64,000 nucleotides of DNA from Marsupella aquatica (taxonomy: Eukaryota > Plantae > Marchantiophyta): assembly GCA_973895155.1 (NCBI GenBank), contig OZ316892.1, positions 10,706,283-10,770,282 on the forward strand, read 5' to 3'. The notes under the pieces are model-generated. The model searched no databases. It saw nothing but the letters and a program-made list of their open reading frames with translations, and was not told the origin of the DNA. Within the stretch, counting starts at the first letter, position 1. The number at the start of each line of letters is the position of its first letter. The translations under genes and the position numbers were made by a program. Shown here one piece after another: positions 7,728-51,797 of the stretch.

Positions 7728-8644
7728 CACTAGAAGAAAACATGGCCCTTTATGACCAATTATCCAATGACCGAAATGAATAAATGACCAAAATTGGCAA
7801 TGACACAAAATGAATGACAGGAGAATGACTGTCCAAAATGACGGTCAATAGACTGAAATGACAAAATGATAAATTTTGCGTCATTTAGCCTAATGTCTAT
7901 AATGACACAATTAGTATAAAATGGTCAATTTAGACATACGTCCTAAATGACGCAACCAAGTACAACAATGATAAATCAGTGTTTAGCACCATTGTAGTCA
8001 CTTTGGACAACGGTCGTAAATGACCAACGCCTAGTTGGGTCATTTTGGACAACGGTGATAAATGACAAAAAACCTATTTTTGTCATTTTAACCAACGCTG
8101 CTAAATGACTAAATTTAGGGTCAATCTAAAAATCAAGATATCTCAGTGTTTACAACAACATATAATCATTATGCACTTATCTCATAAATGACTAAATCTA
8201 GGGTCAGTCTAAAAATCAAAATATATCAGTGTTTACAACAATATATAGTCATTACGGACGTTTGTATCATAAATGATTACTTGTAAAGTCAATCTAAAAA
8301 TTAGGATATATCAGTCTTTATATTAATATATAGTCATTACAAACTTGTGTCATAAATGACTACTTCTAGAGTCATTAAGGAATCAATGATATATCAGTGA
8401 TTTTTTAATTTTATTTTATTTTTAAATTTGAATTTTATTCCGCGTGAACCCCATGGATGAGGGGACCAAGCAGGCCAAACGGCAACAATCCCAAAAGGGC
8501 AGTGGGTACAAGCTCCAAGACCAAAGAGTCCAGTAAGGAGCATGATATCTTTCTAACACTAGGCTCTTGGCAGGCCAAAAGCACATATCTAAAAAACAAA
8601 CGTGAAGGGCAGGCCATCCAAAGTCCAGCAGAGGGACATTACTT

Positions 8645-9708
8645 TCATGAAGATTCAATACGTCTAATTCTACCACCTAAAATCTTGCTTCTTTCTCTAT
8701 CCAGCATAACAGTAGCACCCATCAGACGATCATGTTTCTTGCTTGTTCCAGATGTGACTGTCACCCCAGAAAGATGATCAAGCGTCCCAGAAATAATAGC
8801 TATTTGATCAAAGTTGCGTTTCGTGGTCTTTGTCAAGTCAAAGATCTGTCCATTCCGAGCAGTCCAGATATTCCAGAGGATTTGGTAGATTAAAAAGGCA
8901 CATAGTGTGCTCAGTGGGGACTTCACACGGCAAGACAGTAGGAGATCAAAAATGCTAAAGTCCTGGCCAATAATCTGTCCATTCAACCAGCCACTTGTCT
9001 CGCTCCAGCAGCTCTGTGCATGTCGGCAGTGAAAGAAAAGGTGTGGGATAGTCTCAATCACCCCCCGGCAGAGCTCACAGCAGCCATCAGACTTCAAAAT
9101 CCGCAAAGCCCTGGATCCGGAGAACAGGCCCTGGGCAAGAACACGCCATACAAAGGTTTTAGCCCTGGTGGACAGATCAGATTTCCAAGAAATCTGCCAG
9201 ACATCACTCCATTCTTTCTCTGAAAGCATGACATCCCAGATCCTGTTTAGCCGAACGTAATCAGATCCCTTAGTGCGGAGCATATCATAAATCCTATGAT
9301 TAGATAAAACAAATAGCTTGGGATGTGAAGCAAGATCAAGCCAACGCCATTGTCTGGCAGGGGAGTCCACGTTACTTCCCTGGAAGGTAGTCAAACGGAT
9401 TGTATCCAGAAGAGCAAAGCAAGTTCTCTTGAGATCCTCAGGGAGCCCACGAATGCGATGCATCTTATCATGTAAGTCCTTCCACTCGTGGACAGCAGGG
9501 GACCAAAAGTCACATACTTTCCTGATCCCCAGTTTCCCACAAATCTTAACAATGCTAGTTCTGATGTCCTCCTGCAAGTCGTAGTATCCATGTAAGCATC
9601 TAAGAAGGTCTTCGATCCCCCAATGACCGGGAATTGAGCCAGTGCCAGGGCAGAAGATCAGATTCCCTCTCACCTGCATCCAAGCACTCCAAATCTGTCC
9701 TGTGTACT
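8645..9708 (-). pseudogene. L1 ORF2 C-terminal part (zf-RVT region)
   Basis: W..SWKSDLSTRAKTFVWRVL...CELCRGVIETIPHLFFHC...W...IWTARNGQIF. In frame with the 26509-side part once the CACTA and one ACT copy are removed. Confidence 0.88.
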
Positions 9709-10565
9709 CACTAGAAGAATCCGAGGTGAACTGAGACCGCAATATATGACTCATTTTGGCTCATGTGACTTCATTGTGACTCAACGTGACTTGACCCACG
9801 CTGTGACCCTTGGAGTTGCAAAAGTTGAGACCAAAAAATGGAAGTCACTATTGATACTGGGCTTTGCAACTTGCTTGATACCCATTTGTGACTGATCTGT
9901 GACTTTATTGTGGAGTCTAGCCTTGTTTCAATGTGACTGCAATATGACTTCAGCGAGTCACATCGTAAGTCACATACATGACTTACTCGCATTCAACAAC
10001 GACTACCGTGTGACTATTTAGTGTCACAGGAGAGACCAATGGAGACCCTGGCCCGCGTCACACAACAGAACCATTTGGGACTCTATATACTCATGTTTAT
10101 AACTAATAAGGTTCACATGCAAGTTATAACCATGACTAATGAACACAGAGGGACAGTTCATAAGGAGAGAGAGAGCACTCGACATTACAATACATAGAAA
10201 CCTGATGTTCTAACTTTAGAAATATAACACATTGAATACAAGAATTGAACATAGCATGAATGACATCCACATGAAACAAAGCATCATATAAGCAGATCCT
10301 ACATAAAACATTCATAAGAATTAAACACAATCACAATCTTGCTAAAAAATGAAGATCATTTGAATTCCAATGGAATAGTTTACAATGTGATCAATGTAAT
10401 TTAGACAAAACAGGAACTCATAATTGATGACTGTAGGATGAGATAACTGAAAGCACGTGCATGATACTATGAATCTCCAAGAGGACATGATTCTTGTACT
10501 GCTTCTTGACATCTAAAATCTACATAACATGACTCACGCTACAAACAAATAATGGCATGACATTG

Positions 10566-13500
10566 TTATGGATCCTCTATGAACTTGCTTGGCCATAATA
10601 CCAAAGAACCTGCAGCATCTCCAAGTGTCTTTTGAGGAGGATCATCATTTGTGTTTGGAATGGGAAGGACAGCTTTAGGTTTCACTAGTAATGTGACTAA
10701 CACTACTGAATAACCTGGGGGAATCCTCTTGCCATGGAACGTTGTGGAACCAACCTGCACTCTGGCAAATCCTACTCGTGTTCCACTCTCATCAACAGCT
10801 AACAAGCCACTTTGTCCCTCAGCATTAGGTGCTTTCCCCACTTCCATCTTAGATCTTTCTGCCAGCACTGTTCTTGGAGGTTTGTATGAAACCTTTGACG
10901 TGGCTCTGCTCCCACCAGCAGACTTGCTTCGTGTGTGCATGCTTCCTCTCTTCACAGTAGTGAAGCTAGGCTCAGTAGGTTCCTCTGTTAGGACTGTCAT
11001 AGTAGCAGGTTCATCACCTGGGAGTGTCATACCAACTAACTCTTTGGTTGGATTTATCTCAACAAGAGGCACACCTGTCATTGAGAATGATACATTCTGC
11101 AAATCATTTATCTCTGCAATGGAGTCAAGATCTACATAGCATGAATCTGGCTCAATGGTATCATTGTCATGCTTGCTGATATCCTCATTTGCCCCAACAT
11201 TGATATCATCCACTCCCTTGCCAATGTCATCCTCATCCAAACATGGTTGACTGCCCTCTGTCAAACAAGTTGCTTGTACAGACTGCAACTTTGTTGCCTC
11301 TAAATTACAGCGAGTATTTGCCAGGTTCTCATACTTCTTCTCTGTAGCACCTGTCTTATTCTCTATGGACACAACAACCACAATATATGTTACTGAAAAT
11401 AACACATTCAACAAACAATGTCAATTCAAACTATACATTTAATAATCATATCCCACACAGTTGTAAAGGCCTTACCTTCAAGCCTACATGTCGTTGGCAT
11501 GCCAGAAGAGTGCATCGACTTTGCCACCTCAAGTGGTGATGGTGGAACTCCTGCAGAATTGGAATCAATTTTATCTCTCACCGACACAACAGCTTCCATT
11601 AATGTCTTGAAGTTCACATGGAACAAGTCAGTCAATGAATTCAAACGTTCATTGATCTCTGGAAGACATGTTTCGACAGCCTTCAAACGACTACTTATCT
11701 CTGTAAGTGAAGATCCACCTCCCTACATGACACAGGGGTATAGGTTCAATCACTCCATATGAAATGTTGGGCAATATATGCACAATCAATGTTATATACA
11801 GTGTACACCTGAAATTCAACGCAGGTCATTCAATTACCAATCAGAACTCATATAACTTACATGCTTGGAGGATTCAGATGCACCCTCTTGAGCCCGGGTG
11901 TTCACAATTTCAGCCCTCAACTCTTCTTTTGAAGGGCTTTGCCCCAATTGGGCTTTCTGCACATGCATGGCAAACACAAGTTATCGATCAATATTCAGGG
12001 AACGTACACTAAAAAACAAAGTTTACATGTATGGGTTTACACTAAAAAACAGTACATAGTGTAGCATAAATTACATAGCTAGGCCATTCATTCTTACCAA
12101 ACGTTTAGCTGTCGGTGCAATGCCGGTCCTTCCTGTCAGATTAGGGATCTGAACACTCAACCTGGCCTCGGTCATCTGTGAACTCTTCTTTTTTGAAGCA
12201 TCTGTTACAAAATAAGCTACTAACCTTGCCCACACTTTATCATCACAACTGGCTGGTGGAGGCATATCTGGCTTCTCCCCACCTTCCTTCCAAGCCTTAT
12301 GCATTCTCCACCTCTCTTGCTTGATAATTTTACCTGCTGTACTCTCTAGGCAACCTATGTCCATGCCATCATCACTGCCCACATAATTCCATTTGGCAGC
12401 AACATTTTCACATACAGTCTTCCAATCTTCCAATACTACTTCCATGTAGTACTGGGCGTTGTATTGGCCACCCCTTCATTCACCCTACCTGGGGTTCTGA
12501 AGCCAGCTGGGAAAATACAATGCCGTTCATGCTTGAGAACTACATATAGCAGAATGGATGACGGCAACATTCAATGCTTCACTTCAAGAAAAATTCTTCA
12601 AACATACATACCTGTAGCTCTGCCTGTAGATGCCTGTGCAGGGACTGCACTCTGAAATTGTTGCGACCCTAGACCACCTGTCCAGCCTAGTACAGGGGCC
12701 GGATGATGTCACTTTCTAGGTATGTGTGTGCAAACATATGTACTGAAAACTAAGTACAAACTGTAGGAAAACAACTGAACATTCACCGACATACCTGTCC
12801 CCCTTCCGTGCTGCATCTGCATAGGGGCATTAGTGAATACTTGAGTCGATGGTTCAACTGTCCAACCTGCACACATACATTTTCTATCATTATACATGTG
12901 CAGAGTCCCCCCCCACGTGAATGGACTCCACATATAATGAGTTCTTCCATTGCTGACAAGATCAGACATTACCTACTTGTAGGTACTGAATTTTGATATC
13001 CCTGCCAATTACCTTCACCACCTTCCCAACCTTGTTCATTCCACGACCCACCACCATCCTCCCAACCTGGTTCAACCCATGTCTGTCCTTGTGGACATTG
13101 GAACTGATCATTACTAGCATTTGCCCAATCAGGTTGGGCAGAATCTGCATGCAATGGCAGGTGGACAGAATTTCATGTTGTCTGAGTCCAATACATCCCA
13201 AACAATGTCAAAAATTGATATGCAGTCTGAAATTCAGGAGTGCCATGCCTTCACAAAGAACTGGCATATAGATATATACTCACATCCCCATGGTTGAGGT
13301 GGACGTCCATACCCACGAGATTGTGGGTTTGGACCTGCTCTGCCTCTACCACGGGCATAACCTAGAGCTTGCCCCCTGCCATAGTATTGGGCACTAGCCT
13401 GGGATCTACCACTACTACCACCTTGCCAACCTTGATCAGAGGTCAGCCCCCCCTGCTGGTATGGTGCATGCACAGGCTTCGAAGGCAAAACAGAACTGGC

Positions 13501-13900
13501 AGGACACTGCATCACATCACCAACTACAATGTCAGGAACTAAGCAAGGTACATATGTGTAGTACTGAACATATGAAACCTCTAAACAAGAGTTTTTAACT
13601 CAAAACCTTGTTGGGAAAACTACTTACATGTTTCTTTTGGGGCTGCTCTGCAATGTATTCATCTTCATAACCCCCATCCTCATCCATTTCCTCTGGAAAA
13701 TACTCATCATCTGCATCTTCTTGTCTAGTGTCTGCACCCACCTGTGCAGCATCAATGTCATCTCCACATTCTGCCATTGTAGGTACGACCTTCTTGCTCA
13801 ACCTGTCACTCCGACGCACAGGCCCAGAGATAGTGCTGGTCACCCTTCTTGGGTACTCCTTTTGTTTCTTTGAAAATGCTGTGGCTCTGCGACATTCCAA
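10566..13900 (-). CDS. CACTA TnpA-like accessory protein (multi-exon; boundaries approximate)
   Basis: The exon at 12071-12445 has the Ptta/En/Spm-like motif PPPASCDDKVWARLVAYF...SSQMTEAR...TGRTG. The last exon ends with a TNP1-like domain FHGKRIPPGYSVVLV...LPIP...TLGDAAGSLVLWP. Confidence 0.75.
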
Positions 13901-14261
13901 TATGAGAATACAGTCACAATTTCAGTGCTACATTGAACTATTCATGTCACACAAACTCAGCGGAGGGGTGTAGTTGAGAATCGTTCCCTTACAATTCAGC
14001 CACATCCTTTTCTAGATCCAGTTCTGCGATTTTGGCTTTCACGTATGCTCGTTGTTCCATAGCTTTCCTTTCATACTCACACATCTTTGTGTCACTGTGT
14101 TCCATCCTACTGGACCACAAAAACATGTCATCTATGGTCACCCCGTATAACACAATGCAACCACAATCACCAGGCATCCATCCATACATCTGTGTTGCTT
14201 CAGAATTACTTTATTACACATCCTTCCCCTCACTAATGTCCATGCAAACAATTCACATTAC

Positions 14262-17200
14262 TCATGGCACAGGCACACTGTTGGCATCTACATCTCTGAA
14301 TTCGCCTCCTTCAGCAAATGCATCTACCCTTGTCACAGGAATGAAGTCCCCGCTATCATGAACTACAGGCACTTGGTCTGAACGCCGACGATCAAAGGCA
14401 CTATGAGAGTGTAAATGAAACTCAAGGTTTGATCCTTCCATCCGACGTTGCCTGGCCTGTTTATGACACACTACACGCCAACCTGGGGAGTCTTCCACAT
14501 CCAGGAAGAAAGCTTGCTCCACCTGACTAGGAAACACAAATGGCTCAGACCATTCGGGCAATTTCCCTCTGAAATTGGCCAGCAAGAAACCGTCGTTGTC
14601 TCTCTTCATGGTAGCCCTGTTACCAAGCCAATCCTGCCGCACCCATGAACCTTTCATAAGAATCACAGGACTGGACACCGCCCCATAGTCCAGAGCCCAT
14701 ATGTCAACTAATTCTCCCACATATCCCATCTCCATCCAGGCCCTGTCGTGATTGTGGCTCTGTTGCTCAAATACAGTGATGAGCCCGCAGTCATTCGTCA
14801 CCCTGTAGGCACTGTCACCATCCTTCACTCGGAAGTGATTCCCATATGCTCTCATCCGTTTGTAAGTCTTCACTTTCAGGCTAGGGGCATTAGACAGTAG
14901 GTAAACATCTGCATCCATGTCTGGGTGGGTCTCGTGATGCTCTCTAATTGCCACTCTGATCCACTCCATGAAACCTGGAAAAGTTGTTCCTGCAGTGGGA
15001 TGGGCCGCCTTCAATGACTCATACTCCCTGAACGAACAACCACACAGCATTAGCTTGGGTAAACATGAACAGGCTGAAGGAGAAAACCACACGAACACAA
15101 CATTTAAGCTCATGAACTGGATTATAGCACATGTATGCACTCACTGTATCCAGGGTTCCATCACCGCAGTGTTGTGCAATACAAAGTCATGTGCCAAGTC
15201 TCTCATAGATATGGTCAGGTTCTTTGTGGTTGCAGCCCCTTCCAGTACTTCACCTATCACGCCTTCCTCCTCATCAGAATTCCACACCCTGGTCTTCACA
15301 TGCTCATATTGTGCTATGTATTCGGTCAGAAATCCCAGAGTCTCATCCTTGATGTAACCTTTAGCCATGCTTGCTTCAGGTTTGTAATATGTTCTCACGT
15401 GACCTTTGAGTAGCTTCATGTACCGTTCCAAAGGGTACAACCAACGAGCACTCACAGGCCCAAATTGGTGTAGCTCTTCCACAACATGGACAAGTAGGTG
15501 GGTCATGACATCAAAAAATGTGGGAGGAAAATAAATCTCCAGGTCACACAGCACCTGAGCGACATCTTCTGTCAGTTGTGGGAAGTGTGTTTCATCCCAA
15601 ACCTTCACACAAATACGACGAAACACATCACTGAGTCGCATGATCACAGTACGAATAGGCTTCTGCAACAGGCCCCTCAGGCATAAAGGCAACACCTGTT
15701 GCATCAACATATGGTAGTCATGGCTTTTCATACTACCAAGCTTTCTAGTCATGATATGCTTCTTGAAAGCACTGCCATAGTTTGAAGGAACCTTCAAAGA
15801 ACTCAACCTCTGCACAAATAGTTCCCACTCTGTGTCTGTCAGAACATAGGGCGCTTGGTACTTCAAGAGCACATCAGCTCTGTGGGCATGTGGCCTCAAC
15901 CAAAGATGGGGTTTCATTCCCCTCTGTTCAAGATCCAATCTCATTGAACCAGTGTCTTTCTCTCCACACAAGAATCTGAGTAGACTCTCACAAATATTCT
16001 TTTCAATGTGCATAACATCAATGTTATGTTTGCTTGGCTCAAACTCCTGCATCGTTGCAATGCAAAAGCGTCAGGAAATGCCTCAAGTTTAGTCTCTCTC
16101 TTCGAAATGAATGCACATGCTCTGAACCAAAACATGTATCCCAATTAGCATCAACTCCAAGAGGCTTACCCTCCAGTACTTGAGCTCCAAGTCCAATATG
16201 CTCAGTCTTTTTACACCATATCGCTTTATTGGATCACTCACTCCATCTTCCCTGCCCCCTCGTTTGATATAGTCATCCCTCAGTGCTCCCCACTGCCTGA
16301 TCTCCTCTTTGGTCACTCATGCCGGGGGTCCACGTTGCTCAATCTCATTGCCAAAGTGTGCAATCAGTGCCTGTCTTTCTCTGTAAGGGTGATCTGCCTT
16401 CAGAAAACGACGATGGCCCATGTATATCACTTTCTGCAGGGCTCTGGAGTACTCACTGGTGACATTGCGCCCACAGATAGTACAAGCACAATATCCTTTT
16501 GTTGTTTGGCCTGATATCATCCCATGGGCTGGGTAGTCAGCTATAGTCAGAATGACAATGGCTCTAAGGATGAATGGGTTTAACCTCCCAAGCCTCTGTA
16601 GGACATCATATGTGAGAACTCCTTCCTCCCAAAGCTTTCTCAATTCCTCCACTAGGGGAGCCAGAAACACATCTATGTTGGCAGATACAGCACTGTCTGG
16701 CCCTGGTATCAGTAGGACCATCAGAACAAAAAATCGCTTTGTAGTCATCCAAGGAGGAAGGTTATAATTCAAAATAGTTACAAGCCAGCACGAAAATTTG
16801 TTGTTCTTGTCTCCAAATGGGTTTACCCCATCCAATGACAGCCCAAGTCTGACATTCCTCGGCTCAGCAGCAAATTCAGGATACATCTCATCTATGAGTT
16901 TCCATTGCCTTGAATCTGCAGCATGTTGTTGTAGCCCATCATCACTTTTCTTGTCAGTTGCCCAAGTCATCATCTCCGAGATGGCACGGCTTCTGAACAT
17001 CCGCTGAAGTCTGGGAATGAGTGGAAAATGACGAAGTACCTTGGCGGGAACCATAGACTTTCCTGAGTTCCGATACCTGTGCTTCCCACACTTAGGGCAT
17101 GTCAACGATTCTTTATACTCCTTTCTGAAAAGAACATGCCCATCAGGACAGGCATGGATCGAATCATAGTTCAATCCAAGATTAGATATGCATCTTTTTG

Positions 17201-17993
17201 CCTCGTACATGTTCTTGGGCAAAATATTACCATCTGGTAGCACAGTTGTTCGCAAGAATGCCAACAACTCAGAAACCAAAACGTTGGGGACATTGTGGTT
17301 GCCGCAAATGTTCAGGAACATGATGACAAATCCCAGTTTAGAACATTTGCTACCGGGGTACAAAGACTTCCTGCCTTCCTGTATTTGCAGGGGAGAGCCA
17401 AACATCCCATCGTGCCCAGGGGTTTCCTGCCCTATCTCAAACTCATCAAGAGGCTCTTCGACAGGGGGCACACTTGCATCTGCAGCCGTATCCTCTTCGT
17501 TGTCCAGCCCATCATGAAATGCATCCAAGTCTTGGAAGATGTCTCTCACCATCTCTTCCACATGAATTCCTTCATCACGTGGTGCTGCCTGAGCACCATC
17601 CCGTTGGAGAGCTGACAACCCACAGAGACCAGCTACAACATTTTCAAATGCACCAGGCAGAACCTCACTTGCCCGTCTTGCAGCACTGGCAGCATCAAAT
17701 TCTAACCTCCACTCCTCGTCGGAAGAATCTTCCTCTGCAGGATCATTCCAAACTCGATGTCGTGGATCTCTTCCATGAACCGCGATATGCCGCCAAACCT
17801 CATTCAGACCCCTGGTACGGGATCCTTGGCAGATTGCACAAGGACATCTCATCCTACTGGCTCCTGAAAGTCTGGTTCGTAACCTTTCACGCTGCCAAAG
17901 CTTATTATCATGGCGTGATATCCTTGTGGGATGATGCAAAGGCAGTGCCTGTGCCCTGGGCTGGGTCTGGGGAGGGTGGTGACCAGGGTGCAT
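14262..17993 (-). CDS. CACTA TnpD-like transposase (Transposase_21/Tnp2 + DUF4218 + DUF4216), one in-frame stop
   Basis: Motifs RCPCAIC, IHACPDG..CPKCG..RY, FPLIPRLQRMF, FAAEPRNVRLGLSLDGVNPFG, DVMHIEKN, MKSHDYH, FFDVMTHLLVH, EPFVFPSQVEQAFF. Predicted exons 16170-17993, 15145-16046, 14262-15027. TGA at 16317-16319 (likely CGA>TGA). Confidence 0.93.
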
Positions 17994-18426
17994 TGTAACA
18001 GGCTGGGAGCTCTACAGTCATGGACAGCAGTGAACAAGGATGCCTAATGGTGGTATTTGTGTTCCATATATCCCTAACTGTATCTGCCAAAAGAGTTAAC
18101 ATAACGTGTACTAAATTCTCACAAACCCTAAACCACCCCAAAAGAAAAAAACAGGTTCGCAAGTAGTGTACCTATTGTCAAGTGAATGACACAAAATTCC
18201 TAAATGTTGGAGGGTGTCACCACCTCCTCCGCTGTCCTCAAATGTACCGCCTCTGCATGTACGTTTACAGTGACACCCCCAGGCAGCAGGAAACAACAAT
18301 CCGCCAACAGTAAAATAAGCCCAACTGCCACCAACCATAACAAGGTACATTAGTTCAAAGATCACATTTATTTCAATGATCTGATTTATACAAAAAAACT
18401 TGTGTCCAAACTGATGCTACTACTCC

Positions 18427-19299
18427 TCACTCTGATTCATAATCGCTAATGACCCATTCCTCACTTGTTGTCTCATAGTCCTCTCTGTAAGGATCCTGAC
18501 CCTTCCGTGGCCAGGCCTCAAAAAGATCATAGTCCATTGGGTTTTGACGCTTCCCAGCTGCTACTGATTCCACAAGCCAAGCATATGAAACCACAAACAC
18601 ATTATGGGACATGACATAAAAGCGAATGTCTCCCTTCCCAAACTTGCGGCAGGCTTTGGGATATGACTTAGTAATGACATGAGTGGTGTCCTCTGTTATA
18701 TTCTCCTCCACTATCCCACCTAGGTCAAGCACTGTGGACTTGTACACTTTGCACTTAACCTCTCCAATTCCCGCCTCCACAAATACCATGCTCAGCCCTT
18801 TCAGAATGGGGGTTGGTTGCTTCGTCTCCTCAGCCAACATACTCTTCAGCCTTGTAGAGCTCTGTCCTTTGTTGAGTACAGGTCCATATTGGAGATCAGC
18901 AAGCCGTGCCTTTGCTTCCCAGACTTCTTGTTCAGCCCAAGCTGATGCAGTAGCTTCTTCATCCTCCCACAACTCATATTGCTCAGTATCCTGTACAATC
19001 TTATGTGCTACGGAATCTGTGATCCAAGAGGCCTCAACTACTTTTAGGCCTTGCTTAGTAATTGCAGAATTCATGTAGGACCATGACCACTTCTTTATCA
19101 CTGATAGCCATGTCCCTGCAACAACATGTGTAGTCTCTGGAGTGATGTCCTGAACTACAGTGCCATGGAGCTCAGAGAATCGTTTCTGTACAGTTGGCCA
19201 ATGCACTTTGGTCAACCCATGCTGGCCATGGACCAAAATCGCTCTGACCCCTGTAAACACTGCTGGGTGGTCACACTTTCTACGTTTACCAGACTCCAT
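18427..19299 (-). CDS. Transposon-borne tandem-BRCT protein; repeats resemble the plant DNA polymerase lambda BRCT
   Basis: Two repeats: FTGVRAILV...HGTVVQDITPETTHVV...VVEASWITDS...YEL and LKGLSMVFVEAG...GGIVEENITEDTTHVI...KFGK...VVSYAWLVESVAAG...YDL. Intact and intronless, ATG at 19299. Confidence 0.82.
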   Translation of the reverse strand: MESGKRRKCDHPAVFTGVRAILVHGQHGLTKVHWPTVQKRFSELHGTVVQDITPETTHVVAGTWLSVIKKWSWSYMNSAITKQGLKVVEASWITDSVAHKIVQDTEQYELWEDEEATASAWAEQEVWEAKARLADLQYGPVLNKGQSSTRLKSMLAEETKQPTPILKGLSMVFVEAGIGEVKCKVYKSTVLDLGGIVEENITEDTTHVITKSYPKACRKFGKGDIRFYVMSHNVFVVSYAWLVESVAAGKRQNPMDYDLFEAWPRKGQDPYREDYETTSEEWVISDYESE

Positions 19300-19891
19300 G
19301 TACACACACCCTACGTGATGACAGTGAATTTTGGAAGAATGGGTTCACCTGACAATACAAGGACAACAAAATTCCTACTTTTTGAGTTGATCTGGCCCAC
19401 TGGTGCTCAGGTCCGATTTTGATAGGTACAAGGGATATGTGAACAATACGTACTAGGCACCTGCACGGATGCAGGACATTGTTTGAATATATACTACAAA
19501 ATCCATATCCGTGGTGAAATGAAGTGCAACCAACTTGTCATGGCACATACATATTTTGTTGTAAAGGAGGATACATTCAATGACAAACTTATAGGGCAAT
19601 TTGATTAATTGCATGCCTGATAATTTATACGCTTACAACTTAGAAGTCCTGTTTTAATTTAGCAGTCTGATGAAAGTGTTTATGAAAATGACCACTCAGC
19701 CTAAATACTTCCAAGAAGGCTTGTAAGGATAAGTTTGTATAGGCATGTACCCAGCCACTGACACCATAGCACAAGATAAGTGCTGCCTATATAAACTCGC
19801 CTACCCAACTCCTTTTCAAAATTGGAATCTCTGCAATCTCAAAAAATAGTACATCCACATCAGATGCACTGTGCATGTACAATGTTCAGCT

Positions 19892-20572
19892 TCACAGCCA
19901 AGATATGTGATCTCTCATAGGAGTGCGCGAGGTAGGATCAATGGCATGGCGATGACAATAAAATATCCATCGATCAACACCATGTGTAGAGTGATCATAG
20001 ATTTCTCTGTCACAAGCATAACCCTCTGCTTGATGATCTTTCAGGCAATGATAGTGCCACATAGTGGGACACCTAGCACAGTGGACTATGTCAGTCCAGT
20101 AGTCATCATCATGCTCACCACATGCCTTGCACCTATGAAGTGGGCAAGCTGTGGCATGAGCAGGCAAACACTCAAAACAGAAAAATCTCACACAAAAACG
20201 GTCTGGACATTTCCTAACATTTGCTGCAGCATCAACAGAGCCCTCATAGGACCCCAACTTCCCACACTGTGCACACTTAGCCTGCTTCTCCAAACAATCA
20301 GTGCACATCCAGTCTCCCTGGTGTGTTGACGGGAGGCCCACCCCTGGACAGTTGTTTTCTGCAGCATGGTCAGACTCCAGGTTGAGGTGGAAATGCCTCA
20401 TGCAAGGGCCCTCACAAATGACCAGGCCCCCACCATCGTCACAAATGGCACAACAATGAGCTGCCTTCTGGAAAATCTGACTTGTAGAGAAGTTAGTAGC
20501 ATCTGCCCCAAGTACACCTGTGTTTCTCACCTCTGTCACACGCTTTTTGGCTTGAATTTTAGGCCGTGCCAT
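19892..20572 (-). CDS. Transposon-borne stand-alone EDM2-like composite PHD-finger protein (226 aa)
   Basis: CAICDDGG.LVICEGPCMRHFH...WMCTDC...KCAQCGKLGS...CPLHRCKAC...CARCPTMWHYHCL...IFYCHRHAIDPTSRTPMRDHISW follows the EDM2 PHD cassette (CAICDNGG..CCEG.C.RSFH...CPLHKC...CRRCPKSYH..CL...IYCxxHEID....TPxRDH). Intact ORF. Confidence 0.88.
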   Translation of the reverse strand: MARPKIQAKKRVTEVRNTGVLGADATNFSTSQIFQKAAHCCAICDDGGGLVICEGPCMRHFHLNLESDHAAENNCPGVGLPSTHQGDWMCTDCLEKQAKCAQCGKLGSYEGSVDAAANVRKCPDRFCVRFFCFECLPAHATACPLHRCKACGEHDDDYWTDIVHCARCPTMWHYHCLKDHQAEGYACDREIYDHSTHGVDRWIFYCHRHAIDPTSRTPMRDHISWL

Positions 20573-20582
20573 GCCTGCGCAT

Positions 20583-20727
20583 GAGATAGACTCTACAATT
20601 TAGCAGACTGCACAGAAAGTAAAATATATTTAGCATTTAAGGTACAAAGGCATTTAGATAGACTCTACAATTTAGCAGACTGCACAGAAAGTAAAATATA
20701 TTTAGCATTTAAGGTACAAAGGCATTT
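20583..20727 (+). repeat. Tandem duplication of ~72 bp in the intron upstream of the PHD ORF
   Basis: gatagactctacaatttagcagactgcacagaaagtaaaatatatttagcatttaaggtacaaagg occurs twice. Confidence 0.85.
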
Positions 20728-21342
20728 GCTACTGCAATGAATTGGAATGGCCACACAAGGATGCAGAGCACACATACTTTTGGTATGTTGAGCCCACACA
20801 CAAAACTGATCCCCTAATACAATTTCTCCACCAACACCTCAATTTTAATTGTGGCTATGATTCACCAAAGGAGATCTGCAACAACATTTCATGCATTTGA
20901 ATCACATACAATAGTCATGACATGTAAAACAGGCATTCTTCGAAGAGGATTGGTATGAAGCAGTGTCATAAGGGTTGAAATTTATACATCCTAAATAGGT
21001 TATGATAGTGGTTGAGACAAATAAGTGAGGCATAAATCATTTTGCATATTATCACATGGCCCATTAATTCATTCAACGTTGCAATGTTCACCAGGTTAAA
21101 GCAGTCATGAAAGCAGTCTTTCAATAGAGACTGTTATGCGAGTTTGCTAGCCTCTTAAATTAGGATATTTTGCTTAGTGCAGGCATAATAGGATATAAGT
21201 TATGTACTGTTGACCCTAAACCCTGGACCCAAAATTGCTCATACATCAAAATTTTAAGTAAATATCCTCTGTGTTGAAGTCAGAGTGTTAAGCTATAGGT
21301 CAATGGTATCTGGTTTGTGCATGCGGTGTGACAAGTGGTCCT

Positions 21343-21792
21343 CTAGAGCATGTGATCCAAACATGTGTAGACACCAAAGTCACCGGTGGTGGGGTCTGGG
21401 AGGGCAGGACAAGTGACATCACCAGGCACACTGCAGGATGGCGAGTGGTTCCAGATGATACATTGTGCTCTGTGCAAAAATCGGCATCCAAGAGAACGGT
21501 CATCCAATTCTGGGCCAGAAGCCCTATAGGCAGGACAGTCATATTGGCAACTGTGTACACACCCTTGGCACCTAATTTGTGGCGGGTCATGTACAAGAGA
21601 CACAAATACCAAGGATGTCGGGAAGGGTACTGAAGCAGGTAGAGGCCGGCTGTAGTTGTTCCTGGAAACAACAGGGTACTCAAAGTACCATGCAGACTGG
21701 GCTGGAAGGATCCCAAGTCTGACATACTCAAGGCGCAACATCTCTGCCTTGCGTGCAAGTCGCACATGTTCAGCGTTGCGGGTCCTCACCAT
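21343..21792 (-). CDS. Cys/His-rich putative zinc-binding protein, 149 aa (CACTA cargo)
   Basis: Basic N-terminus MVRTRN..RLARK, then CQGC..SCQYDC...GCRFLHRAQC...C...C...CLDH. Co-oriented with the other cargo ORFs and preceded by a splice acceptor near 21921. Confidence 0.5.
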   Translation of the reverse strand: MVRTRNAEHVRLARKAEMLRLEYVRLGILPAQSAWYFEYPVVSRNNYSRPLPASVPFPTSLVFVSLVHDPPQIRCQGCVHSCQYDCPAYRASGPELDDRSLGCRFLHRAQCIIWNHSPSCSVPGDVTCPALPDPTTGDFGVYTCLDHML

Positions 21793-22800
21793 AAGTGTTG
21801 CTTTCGTTGTGATGTCCTCTGTTCACGTCCTTTGATGAGCAAGGTGAGCAAGAGGTCGACTTGCCTCGCCAACAGCAACCACCTAAACTAATCAGTTCCC
21901 ACTCATTGTCTTGGTTCCAACTACAGGTCATAGTATACACATAGCATGAAACGTGCATAGTACATATTTGATTCTGAGTTTATGAGTTTCCTAAGACAAA
22001 GAGCTTGGTGATAAACCCATATTCTCGACGGACATGTATATCAATCATATTAAACTCCTGTTTTTTCATCCAGAAAGACCGAAAGTCTCACCTTGCAGGT
22101 TGCAGCAGAGAGAAAATTCACTGGTTGTCGTGTTGTGCAAGTGAACCTCCACTGATGCCCCGGTGTAGCCCCTCAGATGCAGGTGACACTTACCAACTCC
22201 CAAGTTGCCTGGTCTAACAGAAAATGTTTATATCTTCAGAACTTTATAGAGCAAGTACATGATCACATACTTCTGGATCTATTCATATTTGGAACTCTTG
22301 CCAACTACAACTCCCATTATGCACAAGCTCACATCAACAGAGAAAGATACAGAATGCATACTTACTATGGCTCTAAGCACCTTCACTACCTTGTTGAACC
22401 CAGTCCTGAAGTCTTTTCAGCGTGTTTGTTGTGCTGTCTCCTTTGGCACCCAACACCTTAGTCCTTGATGTAACAGAATGCGATTTTACAAGTTAGATGC
22501 TTTGGAACCTTCTATGGTCTTAGCTGAATTGATGTCATCGTAAGTGGTGAAAGACAAGGAAGACGAAAACTGGTTGAAGAGCTGTGGACAACACACTAGC
22601 ATGAAGTGCTTCAACCAATCCACTGCCAAACGGAACTCTTACACAGTCACATTCTTTCAGTAAACAGAAACTCAGTCAAACTTCATAATCAAAGTACAGA
22701 CTCTGAAGGACCAAAGGAGGATGTTGTGAGTTTCTCTGTTGTTTAATGTGTTACCCTTCTAGTTTCGAAGTTAGCAAATGCTGAATAATGTGTCTACCAG

Positions 22801-23140
22801 ATCTTCGAAAAGAAGCCCACCACAATTAAGAACTTCGGTATCTGGGTGAGGTATCAGAGTTGTACAGGTTATCCCAACATGTACAAGAAATATCGTGATA
22901 CCACATTAAACAACCACACAGCAGATGTATGATGAGATGGCTTCTTGTCATAGAGTTCGGTTCCCTTGCATCCAGATCATCAAGACTACGACAGTCCCTG
23001 TCTCTCTGTGCAAGCGAGAAAGTACCAAGCAGTTCCATGATTCAAAGATCAAGTTCCCCTTGACGTACCGCAAGATTCAACCTCCATCGCGAAAGCTAAA
23101 GACGACTTACAAGGCCACCAAGCCCAACACATTTGTTTGA
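22801..23140 (+). pseudogene. RPL18A: Captured last exon of 60S ribosomal protein L18a (eL20), frameshifted
   Basis: After ...ctaccag|: [37 protein letters not shown], then a frameshift (~22915), then [22 protein letters not shown]...[18 protein letters not shown]...[19 protein letters not shown]. Confidence 0.92.
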
Positions 23141-26100
23141 GTAGTGCGGGTGCAGGTTCCCAATTTTGAAACAATTTGGCTCATTTTATGTCCCGAGGGA
23201 CTCCAGGAGTTTATGTATTGAGTTTCTAGGTCAAGATGCTTAATATAAGGAAATTCAATTATCACTTCGTTCCCAACTTCTATTAATTGAATATACACAA
23301 GCTGGAAGCAAGAAGACAAGCCACAATCTAGCATCTTAGCCAAACACAATCGTCCCGACAAAGCAAAACTCAGCTGGACAGAAGTCACTCGGATCCACAA
23401 AAAATTGAAGATTCACCTCCAAGCCGGAGGCCGATCACTTCAGTACAGCAGCTTCTGGATGGAACAAACTCTGCTCAGCCCCACATAAACACAAATGTTA
23501 AGGCTCCAAGTCAGAGCTCACAAACAGAAACTCAGATAAATAACATTCAAAATCTGTCCAGGTTTGTGCAAAGTGTACATATTCATTCTTCTGGAATGAA
23601 CACGCAATCCATAAGAACGAAAGTAGGAAGGCAAGCGCACGGGCCACCGAGAAAAGTAAAGGATGCATGTGTTAGTGGGGAGGGATCTTAGCAAAAACAG
23701 GGGAAAGCAAGGGAACTTGCTGCTAAAATCAGCTGAACGATTGCACGGTTCCTATAAATTTAGTGGACCTTAAGGCCGTCTGTTCACCCCCCCACCCCAC
23801 CGCCAGAGCACGGGGCACAAGGCATGTTCTGATATAGGGAGGAGCGAAACAGTCATGTCAAGCAAGAAGTGTGGAGAGACCAATCAGTAAGCAAAAATAG
23901 GGGAGGACATACATACATCAGCAGCAGCAGGAAACAAGAAAGATGATTTCGGGTGGCATCTTAGGGTCGGGGACACCACTGCAACACCGGGACTTAGGAT
24001 ATGACTAAATGTAAGCTACACAGTCCTCCGTTCTCTTCAACAATTACCTTAAACAGTGAAGTAATCTAAATGGATGTTGATCAAAATCAATTGCAACTAC
24101 GCGGCCCTTGGTTCTGCTGCGGCTACAGCAGCCAAGAGAACAGCTCAGAGCCTTGATTGAAGACTGTGCTCTCAAACTAAGCTAAAGACAAAGAGATATA
24201 GAGAGAGACAAAAAAAAGTTGACAGGAGTGCAAAGCGAGAACCCACTCCCGTTCTTTCAACACCCTAAACCCCGCTGCCTGACTTAAGTTGCATGGCGAC
24301 AGAAGCAGTCATTGAAAACTTACCTTGTGATGACAAAAACGCTCTGGGATGGGCTGCTACTCCCAGGACTATCCCACACTCTTAGCGCCCCGTTGCTATT
24401 GAGCCACACTTCAGTTCAGCCACGCACGCTCAATCTTTGTCATTCAGCTAAGTTTAGCTCCGCAGGGCCTGGACTCACTCTCATCCAATTTCAGTTGATC
24501 AGTATTGCAGCTCTCTGCTCCCAAGAATAGGTCCTTGCGTTTGTTGAGCGCCTCTATAGACTCACTTACCTCCAAAAACACTGAAAGTTTTTATCTGCAT
24601 TACAATGAGCTCTAAAGACCAAAAACATTCCCGCCTAAACTGAAATAGAGTCCGCAACTACAAGCTTTGCAGCTCAACTCTCTGAGCTCTCCCAGCTCAA
24701 AGGTATCAGCATGTTGTACCCACACTTGATCGAACGCTCTTCCAATGCTCGCTAGGTTGATCTTCCAATGCTCACGGTAAGCTATGGACACCAAGCTCAG
24801 AAGACCGTGGGGAGACAACTAAACTTGCAGCGACGTAGGACCGCAAAGATAGGGATTGCAGCTTTACCTGGGGCGATGCAGCACCAAGCCGTGCTGCGTA
24901 GCAATCCGCAGCAAGAATAGTCCAAATGCAAGCCAAGTGACAAGCTCCTGGTTCTCGATCCCAAGTTGCAACTGAATATCGAATTCACTCTCCTAGCTTC
25001 AAGGAATGAGTGTCTATTGAATGTTGAATTAAATTCTCGCAAACTCTTCACAGTGCTTCCCGTAGTGCCTATTGTCGATGCAACACACAATCACTCTTGA
25101 TGCCTACTACTCACATTCCCTTTTCTCAATGCAACACACACTCGCTCTTCTCGCCTCCTACTACTCACATTGCCCAACGATCAACGAAAGCAGAAGGACA
25201 GGACAGGGAGAACCCTTTCGCAGCTCAGGACGGCAAGGCTAGGAGTGTATACACATCGGGCCGCAATAAGGTCCAACCTCAACTTCAAAAAGTGCAACGC
25301 CAAAACTGGAAGCCGGGTCCAATAACAGTCGTTAGTAGGATGTCGTAAAACCCCTAAAGTTGCAGCATTGCCATACTCTACTTCCTCACCCGGTAGCGCT
25401 AGGCATTCGACCTCTCTCTTCCAAAGACCTCGATGACCTCCCACCAGCTCAATGACGATGGCACGCAAAGCTTCCGTTTGGCTTGCAAACCCTTGAGGCA
25501 AACCAACTCCCTTGGAGACCCTTCCCAAAACCCTGTGCGGGAGAGAAATGCCGAACGTGAAGACCACTCACTTGTCTTCCCATTGAAGTGGAGACATTAG
25601 TTCACAAAAGAGACACAAAAGTCTATGATTTGCCTAATTTGTTTTTTCCTTTGAAACCAAAGGACTTACGCAATAGTTATATGTGGGGTGAGTGGTTAGT
25701 CACAACTTTGAACCACCCCCTTTGGTGAAAATGTGGCCAAATATTCAGGTATGACCCCACATTACCATTATGAAGTACACTTTTTTAGGGTTGGGGTAGT
25801 GAAGAGCTGATCATATATATTTAAGTTGGACATTTAAGTTGGACTTATATTGAACATGAAGCATGCATTGGTTGTCATATATGAAGGGGGCCGGGGAAAC
25901 ATGGTGGTTTCTGGGGCATGGCAATAAGTAAACCCAACCTACATATGTGAGGCTGAAATTGGGTGATAATTAAGCACGCCTTTGGCACGACCAGAAGACG
26001 TCGATAGAAAAATTAGAGATTGACTACAAAAAGCATTAAGTTAGGTTAGCAAGCTTTGACAAATCCTTTTTGTAGTTGAATGGGGCTGGGGCGCGCTTCA

Positions 26101-26508
26101 TGGTGTCTAGATGGGGGTAGGAATAATGATGGAATACTCAGTAATGGCATGGTTTAAAATGGTATGACCAAATTAGAATTAAATCTATGTGGAATGACAT
26201 ATGGTGTATCCAAAATCATATGTATTGGGTTAGATCTCATACTTTAAGGTTGAAGGGCTCAAATGTTGTGCTCTCATAAGTTGTACTCTAATGTAGAGTC
26301 GCTTGTATGACTTCAACCTAATTGCCTTAACTGAGTTATAGTTACAACTTCCCTAAAAGTTGTAAACATGACTCCTCAAAACTTCACCAAAACTCAGTCA
26401 AGAAGGTGTGACTAACATGACACCAATAACCTTGGAGTCGCTGTTTCATGAAGGTCTCGGACAAGTCACATTCTTTGTGGTCTCAGAAAGGGTGGGTTTC
26501 TTCTAGTG

Positions 26509-29374
26509 ACTATAAACGGCCAAAAGAACGAGGTGTGCTCAAAAGAATCTTGTCCTGCATGGAGTAGCGGTTTCTACGGACAGTCTTAAAGTTTCTCCAT
26601 TTTGTCAGCAGTAAATTCTCAGCATACATTAGAGCCCACTCCGACCCTGGATGATCCAGTGCTCCAGTAAACCACCTGCTCAAGAGGGCATCAGAATAAC
26701 TGCGAAATTCTTTAAAGCCCAGACCACCTTCCATCTTGGGTCGACATAACTTGGACCAGGCCACCAGGGGGATCCGCTTCCCTCCCTGTTTATTCATCCC
26801 CCATAGAAAGACCCGACTCAAGGCTATCAGTCTCTTAGCCAAGGAACTAGGTGACCTGAGAAACATCATGTGGTAGACCGGGATAGCCTGTAGGACATGC
26901 TTGACCAGTAGCACCCGACCAGTGAATGAAAGAAACCGAGTAGACCAAGATGAGAGCCGGGCACTGATCCTGTCAAGACAAAAACCATGCAATTGTGCCT
27001 CAGAGAGATCGTAACCGAAGGGTGCCCCGAGGTATTTTTGGACAACTCCTTCCGCACTGATCAGGCAGCCAGTCTCCCTAAGCCAACCAGGGATGTCATC
27101 TAATGCAATAGGCACCACCACCGATTTGCTTAGATTTAATTTAGCACCCATCGCACGCTCGTAGCAATTAATAGCACATCTAGCCTGTTCAAAAGACTCC
27201 GCTGTGGCAGGAATGAACATCCCAAGGTCATCAGCAAAGAGTCTAAAGCAGATAGTCAAAACTGAAGACACCTGTATACCCTGTAGTCGACCTGCCTCAA
27301 TTTCAGCCTTGAAAAAATCCATGAGCGGTTGAGTAGATAGAACAAAAAGTAAAGGGGAAAGTGGGCAGCCTTGTCGTACCCCTCTGCACATCCTCACATC
27401 AGCGGTCTAGAGGCCATTAACCAGAGCCCTGGAGGTAGCACCACCAATCAACGATTTGACAAGAAAAATAAAGTGGGATCCTATCCCTAACAAGTACATC
27501 GATTCCCAGATGTAGGAATGATCTACTCTGTCAAAAGCTTTTTCAAAGTCCAATTTCAAGAAAAGAGATGGCGTCCTGGTACAATTAATCCAATCATTGG
27601 CCAGCCAGGTGAGGGAGATGTTTTCCAGTATGTGCCTACCAGGGATAAAGCCAGTCTGTTGCGGGCTAATCATACTGGGAAGTAGTATTTTTAACCTGAG
27701 GGCCAACAGTTTAGCAATGAGTTTATAGGTAGTGGTAAGCATGGTCAAAGCTCTCCAATCTCCTAAACGACATTTATCCGTTTTCTTCGGAATAAACCGA
27801 ATCACACCATCACGGATACAGGAGGCAAGTTGTCCTGTCCTCCAGAAATCAGAAATCATGTCATGAAAATCGGCTTCCATGAAGTTCCAGCAAGCTCTGA
27901 ACACTTCTGCCGTCATTCCGTCGATTCCAGGAGCCTTGTCATTGGGTAGCATCATTAGTGTCTCCTGTATCTCTCTCGTAGAGGGAAGCTCTTCCAGCAT
28001 TTTGATTTCTGCCGACGAAGGGGCAAAATGAGTGGTTTGGGTCAGTTCTCTACGAGCTGCATACATATCTCTGAGGGCTTCAGCAGTCCGCACAGGTGGT
28101 GAGTAAAGGGCCTCACAGAAGCTCTGTACTTCTTGAACCACAAGTTTTTCATCCCGTATTTCGCGTCCTCCTTCCACCACCAAGTACTCCATTCTTTCTC
28201 GCTGCCTCTTTGCTTTCACAGTTGAGAAGTAGAATTTAGAAGGCTCATCCCCCTGCCCAAGCCATTTAATTCGAGAGAGTCTGCGACAGTGATGCGCTTC
28301 TTCTAGCTCTAAAGAACGTACACTGTCCTCAGTGTTTGCAAAATCCCTGATGCTATCGGGGGAGTAATCTTCCATGATTGTAATCTTCAGTAGGCAAAGT
28401 TTCTCTTTCAATAGTAACATCTCCTGGTCGCGTGGAAGGGGAGAAGCCTGTAGGGTCATATAGCATTGCCTTATCCTTTGAAAAGCCTGTGCAAATCTCA
28501 TGTGAGGGTCAGAAGGGGGATCCGTCATTCCCGTCCAAGCGGCTTCCAACTTCTCGAGATTATCTGTAGTCCTGAGTACAACTGGGTTAGCTTTGAAATA
28601 GGTGGCGCGACGCTGGTTGGTTTCAGACAGGAGTGGCGGGTTGAGGCGGAAGGATATCAGTATGGGATCATGGTCAGAAAGGGCCGAAGTTCCATCATGT
28701 TTGAGTTCCAATAGTTCCGCAGTCCATCTGCCTTTTTCGCTGAAGTAAAAGCGATCTAATCAGGATTGAACCAGCACTCCATTGCGAATTCGTCGCCAGG
28801 TGAATTTGGATCCATTTACGTGACCAAGGATGGAGATAGCGTCCTGCAAATCCAATCTGAGCTTAAGAAACCTCCAGAACTCTAGCTCTCTGCCGCGGAT
28901 CAGTGGAGAGGGACCCGTTGAGTCTACTCTGGATTCCGTCATATTAAAATCGCCACAGAGTACCCATCTGTCATGGGGAAGCTCATTCTTCAGATCATTC
29001 CACAACAATGTTCTATCGCCTTCTGAGTTAGGTGCGTACACACTGATGAGTCCAAAGTTCCCATCAGCATGCTCCAACTGGACCCAGACTGCTCTCCCTC
29101 TGTCAAGCTGTCCCGATCCAAGGACCTTGAAGGAGGGGTTGAGAAGAATAGCAGTTCCACCTCGACCTTCATCAGGGGCAGAGTAAAAGAATTGATAATT
29201 GGGTAAAATAGTTTTAAGGGCGAGATCGAGGCGGAAGCCATCAGCTTTTACTTCCTGAAGCGCGAGGGCATCTAGGGGAGGTCTCAAAGTGGAGGTCCAT
29301 TGCAGCACAACATTTTTGCGATCAGGATCACAAAGCCCACACACATTCCAGGATGCAAATGTAAACGTTGCCAT
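26509..29374 (-). pseudogene. L1 ORF2 N-terminal part: APE endonuclease + reverse transcriptase
   Basis: Motifs SWNVCGL, ALQEVK, SVYAPN, GDFN, S*LDRFY, SDHDPI, KAPGIDG, LKLDFEKAFDRV, RQGCPLSPLLF, FADD, KYLGAP. One reading frame with stops at 28760, 27407 and 26510. Confidence 0.93.
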
Positions 29375-30672
29375 GATAGATTTCTTCCTTCGGCAGAACG
29401 TCTTGCCGAACTCAGAGAAAGTCCATCGTAGGAACTAGAGAGTCGGACTACTGGCAGCGCCTGTAGTCACCAAATGCAGAATGTCGGGAGAGCCTTTCAA
29501 TGCCGAGCCAGAGGGGCTGGCCGAAGCGTCCATCTCAGACGGGGGAATCCTAGATCCCTTTTTCAGATCCTTAGCCTGCTTTCGACTGGGCGTCACCCAG
29601 CCTTCAGCGTCCTGCACATTGGAACCAGGAGCGAAGTGTAAGGATTTTTGATTTTTAGCTTTCTTCTTATCTTTCTCTTTTTTCTTGTCATCGGGTGGTG
29701 ATCTTCTGGCCAATTTCCTCGCTCGATCCTTTTTAATTGCAGTACGAGAAATGAAACCTTCATATTCAGACAGCTCCATGTCTGAGGCAATCTCCGAGGC
29801 AGAGAGTTCCTCCTCAACCTCTTCCATGTTATCCGGGGTGCCCTCAATTAGAGAGGCTGGCGCCAACATTTCAGCCTGTCCCAGAGGTAGACCAGATACC
29901 GGTGAGTTTTTGCCAGGGATGAATAAACCAGTCGAGGAGGGAGTCGTAGCTGAGGTCCGCTGCTGTAAATCCTGGATAACCTTAGGAATAGTATTTGAGT
30001 CGGAGAGGATATGCATCGCAGAGGTATCCAATCCTAACCTCTCAGCGGACTCATCAATGGCCCGATCCATCACCACCAGCAGATCCTCAGCAGCATGATC
30101 CTGGGGATTTCCAAAAAGAGCTCCATCACTCGCAGATGGCAGAGCTCCCGCACCAGGAACAAAAGCAGGATCTTCTCCCAGGGCAGCAATGGCGAGTCCA
30201 GCATGAACCTCCGTAGTCGGGACAGCAACCACCGGTGCTTCGGCCCCAGCAAAATCCGGGGGGATCGATGTAGCATCCGTGGGGGGGCGTTCGTCTGGTG
30301 CAACCTCCTCATAGAGTCTACAGTCTCGTGCCAGATGTCCTTTCTTGTTGCAACGAAAGCAATGGAAAGGGATATTCTTTAAAATGACCGGTTGCCAGAT
30401 AGAGAGCCCTTCCTGAAAGCGAACCTCTACACTCAAGGGCAACTCACGTTGCGTGTCCCATAGGATGCAGGCCCAATCATGGGGGTAAGAACTAAGCTCG
30501 TCGCCTTGAATATAATGTAAGTGTGACAGGGCCGCAAACCCGGTAGTAACTTAGTGATGACTTATAATTGCATATATAAGTAGAAAGACAAGTAGGTGTA
30601 GTAAAAGTGTTTAGATTTTCAAATGTTCAAATTTTTTTATTTTTGTTAGTTCTAATAAATGGATGCGACAAC

Positions 30673-51544: not shown

Positions 51545-51785
51545 TGTTGGAATTGTTTGTATGCTACGTCCGAGTTCTGCTGGGCTACGTTGTGCATCTT
51601 AGTTAGTATGTATATACGGTGCACCTGTTGCCAGCGTCAGATTTAGGGCAATCCCATTAACGGTTTGATTAGGACTAGGCTGTATGGTGCGCCGAGTTTC
51701 CACGGCTGATTCTTCCCTTGCCACTTAAGGGACCCACTGTTGATTCTCAATTCATTCAGTCAGTAAACTCATTTACATTTCTTCA
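51545..51785 (+). repeat. Copia 5' LTR
   Basis: TGTTGGAATT...TTTCTTCA, matching 56459-56699. Confidence 0.96.
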
Positions 51786-51797
51786 TGGTATCAGAGC
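51786..51797 (+). other. Primer binding site (tRNA-iMet)
   Basis: TGGTATCAGAGC directly after the 5' LTR. Confidence 0.95.

Follow-up and report, generated by a model that had tools for sequence, protein, structure and literature searches.

An accessory gene for an EDM2-type PHD cassette with a histone H3-like N-terminal tail in a CACTA transposon of Marsupella aquatica

EDM2 is a host factor that acts at transposable element (TE) sequence marked by H3K9me2. The Arabidopsis protein binds H3K9me2, as described in the available text of several reports (PMC7529245, PMC3632883, PMC10852260, PMC5364540, PMC10241880), and together with IBM2/ASI1 and EDM3/AIPP1 it is stated there to prevent premature polyadenylation in heterochromatic introns (PMC10852260, PMC5364540). 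The locus described here raises the question of why a plant transposon should carry an intact open reading frame (the PHD ORF) that resembles the PHD cassette of such a protein, and what the encoded product might do for the element. The window that we have analyzed is a stretch of 64,000 nt from Marsupella aquatica, and all coordinates given below are positions within it.

The CACTA element and its genes

The PHD ORF lies in a complete CACTA transposon of 16.8 kb (9709-26508), which is recognized as a member of this group by terminal inverted repeats that start with CACTA (13 of 15 positions alike), a 3-bp duplication ACT/ACT, and subterminal AGTCACA repeats, 10 of which are spread over both ends (Table 1). 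The element is inserted in ORF2 of a LINE whose frame runs on across the site, bar one stop at the target, and the empty site has been recovered in contigs of sequencing runs X1 and X3, which join 9705 to 26509 with 3 letters shared. Hence, the original prediction that this ORF is carried by a TE which itself landed in another TE is borne out. The LINE that received the insertion has further in-frame stops and is dead.

Table 1. Coordinates of the features of the CACTA element, its cargo and the interrupted LINE.
Feature	Position	Strand	Description
LINE, 3' part	8645-9705	(-)	zf-RVT; continuation across the CACTA insertion
Left end of CACTA element	9706..9719	(+)	duplication ACT of the target site, then terminal inverted repeat CACTAGAAGAA; subterminal AGTCACA repeats come next
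TnpA-like piece	12071..12475	(-)	Transposase_24 (PF03004), E 2.7e-5, below cut-off
TnpD-type transposase	14262..18011	(-)	three open stretches: Transposase_21, DUF4218, DUF4216
Twin-BRCT cargo ORF	18427..19299	(-)	290 aa, intact; PF00533 E 2e-12, 2 stretches; predicted 3' splice site 19349
PHD ORF	19892..20572	(-)	single exon; 226 aa, with a basic H3-like tail, a linker and an EDM2-type PHD cassette
PHD cassette, residues 39-226	19895..20458	(-)	composite; 24/25 EDM2-invariant Cys/His; His to Cys at 132; linker loss of ~20 aa
H3-like tail, codons 2-10, ARPKIQAKK	20543..20569	(-)	5/9 identical to histone H3 1-9
Tandem duplicate, 72 bp	20587..20730	(-)	contains a predicted 3' splice site twice (20608, 20680), shortly before the ATG
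Ribosomal protein L18a-like piece	22789..23137	(+)	frameshifted, intron-less, antisense to the element genes
Right end of CACTA element	26498..26511	(-)	terminal inverted repeat, then duplication ACT of the target site
LINE, 5' part	26512..30550	(-)	zinc knuckle, endonuclease, RT; in-frame stops

The transposase of the element is matched by two Pfam families (PF02992, E 2e-66; PF13960, E 4e-28), and TnpA probably has further exons in the interval from about 10566 to 14000. The PHD ORF, the twin-BRCT ORF and the region before TnpD have T-rich acceptor-like sites in front of them, and several minus-strand ORFs, each located behind a predicted acceptor, together span more than 10 kb. In En/Spm, alternative splicing proceeds from one promoter, and the acceptor-like sites of the present element would fit an En/Spm-like arrangement of this kind. 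The PHD ORF itself is intact and followed by a stop codon, its product running from MARPKIQAKKR to ...YCHRHAIDPTSRTPMRDHISWL. An in-frame stop is present 9 codons 5' of the ATG, and the nearest T-rich acceptor-like site (20608) precedes that stop; because the upstream stop thus lies behind this site, the ATG is the likely start of the protein under the predicted splicing.

Sequencing depth provides a view of the wider transposon family. Along the CACTA element the depth of X1 contigs is 1,539-1,978, vs 40-56 for the LINE and the empty-site joint, and in five long X1 contigs, whose depths are 1,554-1,799 as compared with 56 for the LINE at the flank, 12 of 2,569 bases depart from the window sequence. 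These values fit a young CACTA family of high copy, depth in itself being no copy number. At 23600-26500 this end of the element shows an approximately tenfold lower contig depth than the remainder in runs X1 and X3; an insertion, or an end that is in the minority, may therefore be present in this copy. Within 9709-26508, the element genes show a strong CpG depletion (observed/expected 0.23-0.38), with CHG not depleted (about 1.1) and a milder CpG loss in the LINE (0.59).

Two other pieces of cargo are identified in the same element. The twin-BRCT ORF adjoins the PHD ORF; its product gives a weak match only in the PDB (BRCA1, E 0.009) and could read phosphorylated chromatin or repair proteins. 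The L18a-like piece is a broken captured host sequence, and it illustrates what unselected cargo looks like in this element. An additional ORF at 21343-21792 (-) encodes 149 aa with a Cys cluster and has a high summed contig depth, like the stretch of the PHD ORF; it found no match in Pfam or in the atlas search and is possibly a third accessory gene. Elsewhere in the window, a second CACTA-type end (7728-8440) starts with the same 11 bases and has ATGAC repeats; a partner for it was not found, and it resembles an array of ~580-bp tandem units rich in ATGAC/GTCAT at 36600-41300. A Copia element with an intact ORF of 1398 codons and two 249-bp repeats that are 98% identical is present at 51540-56702, and tandem arrays of 295, 56 and 14 bp are present at 45.0-49.6 kb.

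Kinship with EDM2 and selection on the PHD ORF

Pfam matches of the PHD ORF, all of which fall under the curated cut-offs, are to three NSD-like PHD families in order (E 5e-5, 4e-3 and 6e-5); NSD-like PHD families are the sole matches up to E 1, and the VANC domain is absent. Comparison of individual proteins is more informative. In phmmer searches the PHD ORF protein matched 119 of 119 angiosperm EDM2 proteins, these being the best matches of a Zizania EDM2 query, with a median of 62.7 bits and a best score of 90.0, whereas the top PDB sequences at the same database size were AIRE (20.9 bits) and NSD2 (20.1 bits); no plant structure was returned by the PDB sequence search. Twenty-five Cys and His residues are invariant in 61 rows of EDM2 sequence, and the protein retains 24 of them, the remaining one (His in 61/61 EDM2 rows) being replaced by Cys132. 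The EDM2-type motif YC..H...TP..DH is present at its C-terminus, ahead of CPLH the linker has lost ~20 aa relative to EDM2, and identity between the cassettes is only ~30%. The domains of EDM2 that precede (PF12047) and follow (PF26055) the cassette are both absent from the 226-aa ORF, which therefore represents a derived cassette and no EDM2 orthologue. By these sequence comparisons EDM2 is by far the closest relative of the cassette, well ahead of NSD2 and of generic PHDs (median ~63 vs 20 bits for NSD2). The original prediction, which had read the ORF as the EDM2 PHD cassette through the C-terminal motif, with the rest of EDM2 missing, a shortened linker and one His ligand turned into Cys, is thus confirmed in each of these respects, as is the closeness to EDM2 that it had proposed to check against NSD PHDs.

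The PHD ORF protein belongs to a family of approximately 20 short relatives, which are 35-80% identical to it and have the Cys swap and the shortened linker in common. Five of them were found in a first search and about fifteen more, many partial, in an HMMER scan, to which one locus (L001) is added. The distant relatives sit on contigs of 1-6 kb that offer no genomic context. The Cys at position 132 is found in 10 of 10 near-full-length relatives and, with W172 and H194, is among the invariant residues specific to the family; the zinc ligands are kept among relatives of 35-40% identity. L001 is the 1 locus to which 26 pattern matches in a metagenome scan came down, and it is too short for context; a family-profile search for longer proteins returned one protein. 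Liverwort EDM2-like proteins are among the top long proteins matched by the family profile, a hint of a non-seed-plant host, and an atlas search with the relative P0004 gave as its top cluster an NSD-like PHD from Streptophyta (score 0.92).

In a tree of 56 rows, from which P0139, P0241 and P0260 were dropped for want of the start motif, the 12 short rows form one clade with a support of 99/100, in an analysis whose bootstrap had not settled. The branch that leads to this clade is long, at 1.59 changes per site, and starts from an open fork outside the vascular-plant EDM2 clade. Judged by the long stem and the open fork, the capture happened long ago, and the tree points to no donor. The PHD ORF belongs to an old family that has evolved separately, and it is not a close copy of a host EDM2. 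Short proteins that consist of the EDM2 cassette only (P0151, P0152, P0161, P0166 and P0246) form another clade, which is nested among angiosperm EDM2 and represents an independent truncation; P0151 is named as Eleusine.

Variation among copies bears on whether the ORF is maintained. In run X1 the ORF also occurs in another abundant version, which has 31 differences in 234 bases and a depth of 1,978, and a similar contig is present in X3. For this second subfamily 11 of 28 assigned differences are silent vs 20.8% expected (p 0.02), which gives a rough dN/dS of 0.41; the estimate is based on 28 of 40 difference rows (91 in all), assigned to the subfamily by matching depth. None of the 28 differences alters a zinc ligand, and no indel at a 5% share was found in the PHD ORF in any of the 4 runs; a few contigs of low depth have gaps in it, and one X3 contig skips 72 bases. 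Over a longer distance, the window and L001 are identical at 83 of 193 aligned residues, yet 16 of 21 four-fold sites differ. L001 (1.9 kb, the only locus of a relative that was fetched) has no transposase, matches the window only at the ORF, and has a stop between tail and cassette. Several other relatives are frameshifted or truncated, as expected among dead transposon copies. Where the original prediction had considered neutral decay across copies, we find an excess of silent change and intact ligands. We conclude that the PHD ORF is a real, selected accessory gene of the CACTA transposon.

The predicted reader fold and the H3-like tail

An AlphaFold model based on 19 family rows reached a pLDDT of 77.6 and a pTM of 0.73, and the solved folds nearest to it are H3-binding PZP domains (E 5e-4) and NSD PHD-C5HCH domains. 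Residues 1-8 and 13-25 of this model are under pLDDT 50, and residues 9-12 are of moderate confidence with one beta-bridge at residue 9. A first model from a 67-row alignment had a lower pLDDT (64, with residues 1-40 under 50) and found no Foldseek match at E 0.001. The tail is docked confidently in neither of the two models.

Information on the residues that contact histone H3 comes from related fingers. In NSD2, the available text of one report describes three Asp residues and a PxGxW pocket that bind K4, R8, R2 and A1 of H3 (PMC11724302). By alignment with AIRE, PHD1 of the PHD ORF protein retains D46, E54 and G86-x-W88; in fingers of the NSD2/AIRE type, these acidic positions and the GxW pocket bind R8, R2 and A1 of H3. 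An acidic stretch precedes PHD1 in 195 host proteins (median net charge -8) but is gone in the short family, 16 rows of which have a charge of -3 to +4, and in the PHD ORF protein His stands two residues ahead of Cys41. With the acidic stretch lost and this His present, PHD1 may bind histones differently or no longer at all, and for a diverged, old cassette without the acidic stretch the H3K9me2 specificity of Arabidopsis EDM2 cannot be assumed.

The N-terminus of the protein shows a second relationship to histone H3. The original prediction had taken it for a possible nuclear localization signal; it is indeed basic, but the prediction overlooked that its motif is conserved by position and in register with H3. 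Compared with the H3 start ARTKQTARK, as printed in the available text of PMC8166343, the sequence ARPKIQAKK matches A1, R2, K4, A7 and K9. In the same text, H3 N-terminal mimics are defined by the rule M-Z-R-X-K, to which 48 of 20,996 human proteins conform at their N-terminus (PMC8166343). The start MARPK fits this rule, the true N-terminus being deduced from the upstream in-frame stop. The rule is likewise fitted by 10 of the 17 short relatives with an N-terminal region (one of them from an internal Met) and by 0 of 218 long EDM2-like proteins (>=600 aa); the 7 relatives that miss it include the close ones P0003 and P0004.

Since best-window H3 scores favor Lys by construction, we have relied on counts in a fixed register. 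Among 12 Met-anchored rows (M-A/T-R), K4 is present in 10 and A7, K8 and K9 in 6 each; position 3 is mostly Pro, positions 10-15 are unconserved, and S10 is never present. Five rows without an M-A/T-R start are outside this count, three of which keep R-x-K internally in the alignment. In six held-out rows, i.e., relatives found after the likeness to H3 had been noted, K4 is present in 6/6, A7 in 3 and K9 in 2, with A7 and K9 together weakly enriched (p 0.03). What the shuffle tests show is conservation by position, which falls short of showing mimicry; in addition, the rows are related to one another and the tail formed part of the search profile. In all relatives the tail is about 30-40 residues away from the reader in one chain.

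A Met-small-Arg start is present in 16 of 218 long proteins, including EDM2-like proteins of Marchantia, Riccia, Calypogeia and Selaginella, from which it follows that A1-R2 was probably inherited and that K4 is a gain of the short family. A Met-Ala-Arg start is observed in the long proteins P0133, P0135, P0136, P0138, P0140, P0144, P0193, P0207 and P0231, the named ones among which are from liverworts and Selaginella; most angiosperm EDM2 proteins are without such a start. The Marchantia EDM2-like protein has A1-R2-T3, A7 and K9 of H3, but Val at position 4. The host EDM2 may, on these sequences, have had an H3-like tip early on.

Possible functions and relation to known systems

Our preferred reading, which we put forward tentatively, is that the PHD ORF protein could well be a small reader-plus-bait that weakens host silencing of the CACTA element. 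It draws together the complete element, the kinship with EDM2, the H3-binding type of fold, the selection on the ORF, the single clade of short relatives, and the motif of the tail. The protein would be made as an alternatively spliced product of the minus-strand transcript of the element, and removal of its Met would expose Ala1, as in H3. The cassette would then hold the protein on chromatin or on the partners of EDM2 without the other EDM2 domains, while the tail would present A1-R2-K4, often with K9, to host H3 readers or lysine methyltransferases. The expected outcome is that the tail would draw activating factors to the element or soak up silencing ones there. A bolder form of this proposal, for which we would claim a distinctly smaller likelihood, is that the CACTA family encodes its own histone mimic, consisting of a free H3-like N-terminus in K4/K9 register and a captured EDM2 reader, which with the twin-BRCT partner might make up a transposon kit that reads chromatin, baits readers and writers, and undoes silencing.

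It is conceivable, though we consider it unlikely, that the cassette, perhaps with the twin-BRCT protein, ties the transposition complex to a chromatin state and thereby steers insertion, the tail serving as an arm for import or DNA binding. The location of this copy in a dead LINE within a repeat-rich window, the adjoining gene for a second reader-type protein, and the abundance of Lys and Arg in the tail are consistent with such a tether, and two reports (10.1101/2021.11.30.470311; PMC12477816) describe TE-borne readers and a presumed role of these in guiding insertion. However, one insertion site is no test; the known tethers are mostly fused to an integrase or transposase, and the in-frame stop before the ATG argues for a free protein. 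For a plain import arm, moreover, the fixed A1-R2-K4 register would be needless.

An action on RNA processing by EDM2-ASI1-AIPP1, in which the protein either spares the long transcript of the element early polyadenylation or blocks EDM2 as a dominant negative, appears improbable to us. The role described for EDM2, IBM2 and EDM3 against premature termination in the available text of PMC10852260 and PMC5364540 would suit it, as would the minus-strand ORFs that lie behind predicted acceptors over more than 10 kb, but the ~30% identity of the cassette to EDM2, its long branch (1.59) and the family-specific invariant residues C132, W172 and H194 count against it. Very improbable, in our estimation, is that the tail acts as an internal pseudo-ligand that blocks the PHD pocket of the same protein or joins copies to one another, giving a self-regulated reader and no bait. 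Tail and reader do share one chain at a distance of 30-40 residues, the pocket residues for R2 and A1 are kept, and residues 9-12 with their beta-bridge are modeled at moderate confidence in one model; most of the tail is nevertheless unconfident in both models, and PHD1 is no longer preceded by the acidic residues that would be expected to take K4. That the ORF is passive cargo, i.e., a captured host fragment multiplied by the element without benefit, is scarcely credible, since the capture of host pieces by CACTA elements (as with the broken L18a piece) and the frameshifted, truncated or (in L001) stop-bearing relatives have to be set against an ORF that has stayed whole in both abundant subfamilies and shows an excess of silent change, zinc ligands kept at 35-40% identity, 16/21 four-fold sites that differ from L001 where 83/193 residues are the same, and broken copies that are expected among dead elements.

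The proposed reader-plus-bait shares features with several known systems while differing from each of them. EDM2 has the same composite PHD cassette and C-terminal motif, and in its liverwort and Selaginella relatives the same Met-Ala-Arg start, but is 700-1600 aa in length vs 226 here; the present protein is without PF12047 and PF26055, is encoded in one exon and carried by a transposon, and has His replaced by Cys at 132, a linker shorter by 20 aa, and no acidic stretch before PHD1. The PHD/PHD-C5HCH domains of NSD1-3 and the PZP domains of JADE1/BRPF1 provide the nearest solved folds, and NSD-like PHD models of Pfam match; the sequence match is far weaker than that to EDM2 (20 vs 63 bits), and neither a SET nor a PWWP domain is present here. 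The H3 tail mimics (H3TMs) described in the available text of Chen et al. 2021 (PMC8166343) follow the same M-Z-R-X-K rule, A7 and K9 being additional here; those are human host proteins that bind PHD/Tudor readers in vitro, whereas the present case is cargo of a plant transposon, joined to its own PHD cassette and known from sequence. Mobile domains of the histone-reader type are known in chromodomain Gypsy elements, in PHD/Chromo fusions (10.1101/2021.11.30.470311) and as a Tudor domain in Ectocarpus Gypsy (PMC12477816); in these sources they are fused to integrase, RT or transposase, in contrast to the separate EDM2-type gene located beside a twin-BRCT gene in a CACTA element. VANC of the VANDAL transposons is likewise an accessory gene of a plant DNA transposon that is proposed to counter silencing, but VANCs bind DNA sequence motifs, according to the available text (PMC10398659), whereas the predicted target here is a histone or chromatin protein and no VANC domain is present.

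Among the top matches listed in our searches of full-text literature, which covered the main text of mostly open papers, there was no EDM2-type cassette, BRCT gene or H3 mimic as CACTA cargo, and the main text of an Arabidopsis TE-product atlas (PMC13547354) gave no PHD, BRCT or EDM2 match. A tally of 823 TE-chromatin fusions (10.1101/2021.11.30.470311) may bear on the novelty of EDM2-type cargo. Viral histone mimics are known (PMC11738798, available text), as are readers carried by TEs and anti-silencing genes of the VANC type; within the sources covered, what is new here is a tail in H3 register on EDM2-type CACTA cargo.

The known counter-silencing proteins of plant transposons bind DNA, and the known TE readers are mostly fused to integrase. 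If the reader-plus-bait reading is true, a free EDM2-derived protein with an H3-like tip would represent a different route, in which the histone code of the host is turned against the host, as it is by some viruses. The protein is small, its family seems to have multiplied recently, and natural variants with and without K4 and K9 are available; hence, the idea is directly testable, and the PHD ORF protein provides a compact handle on the EDM2 cassette.
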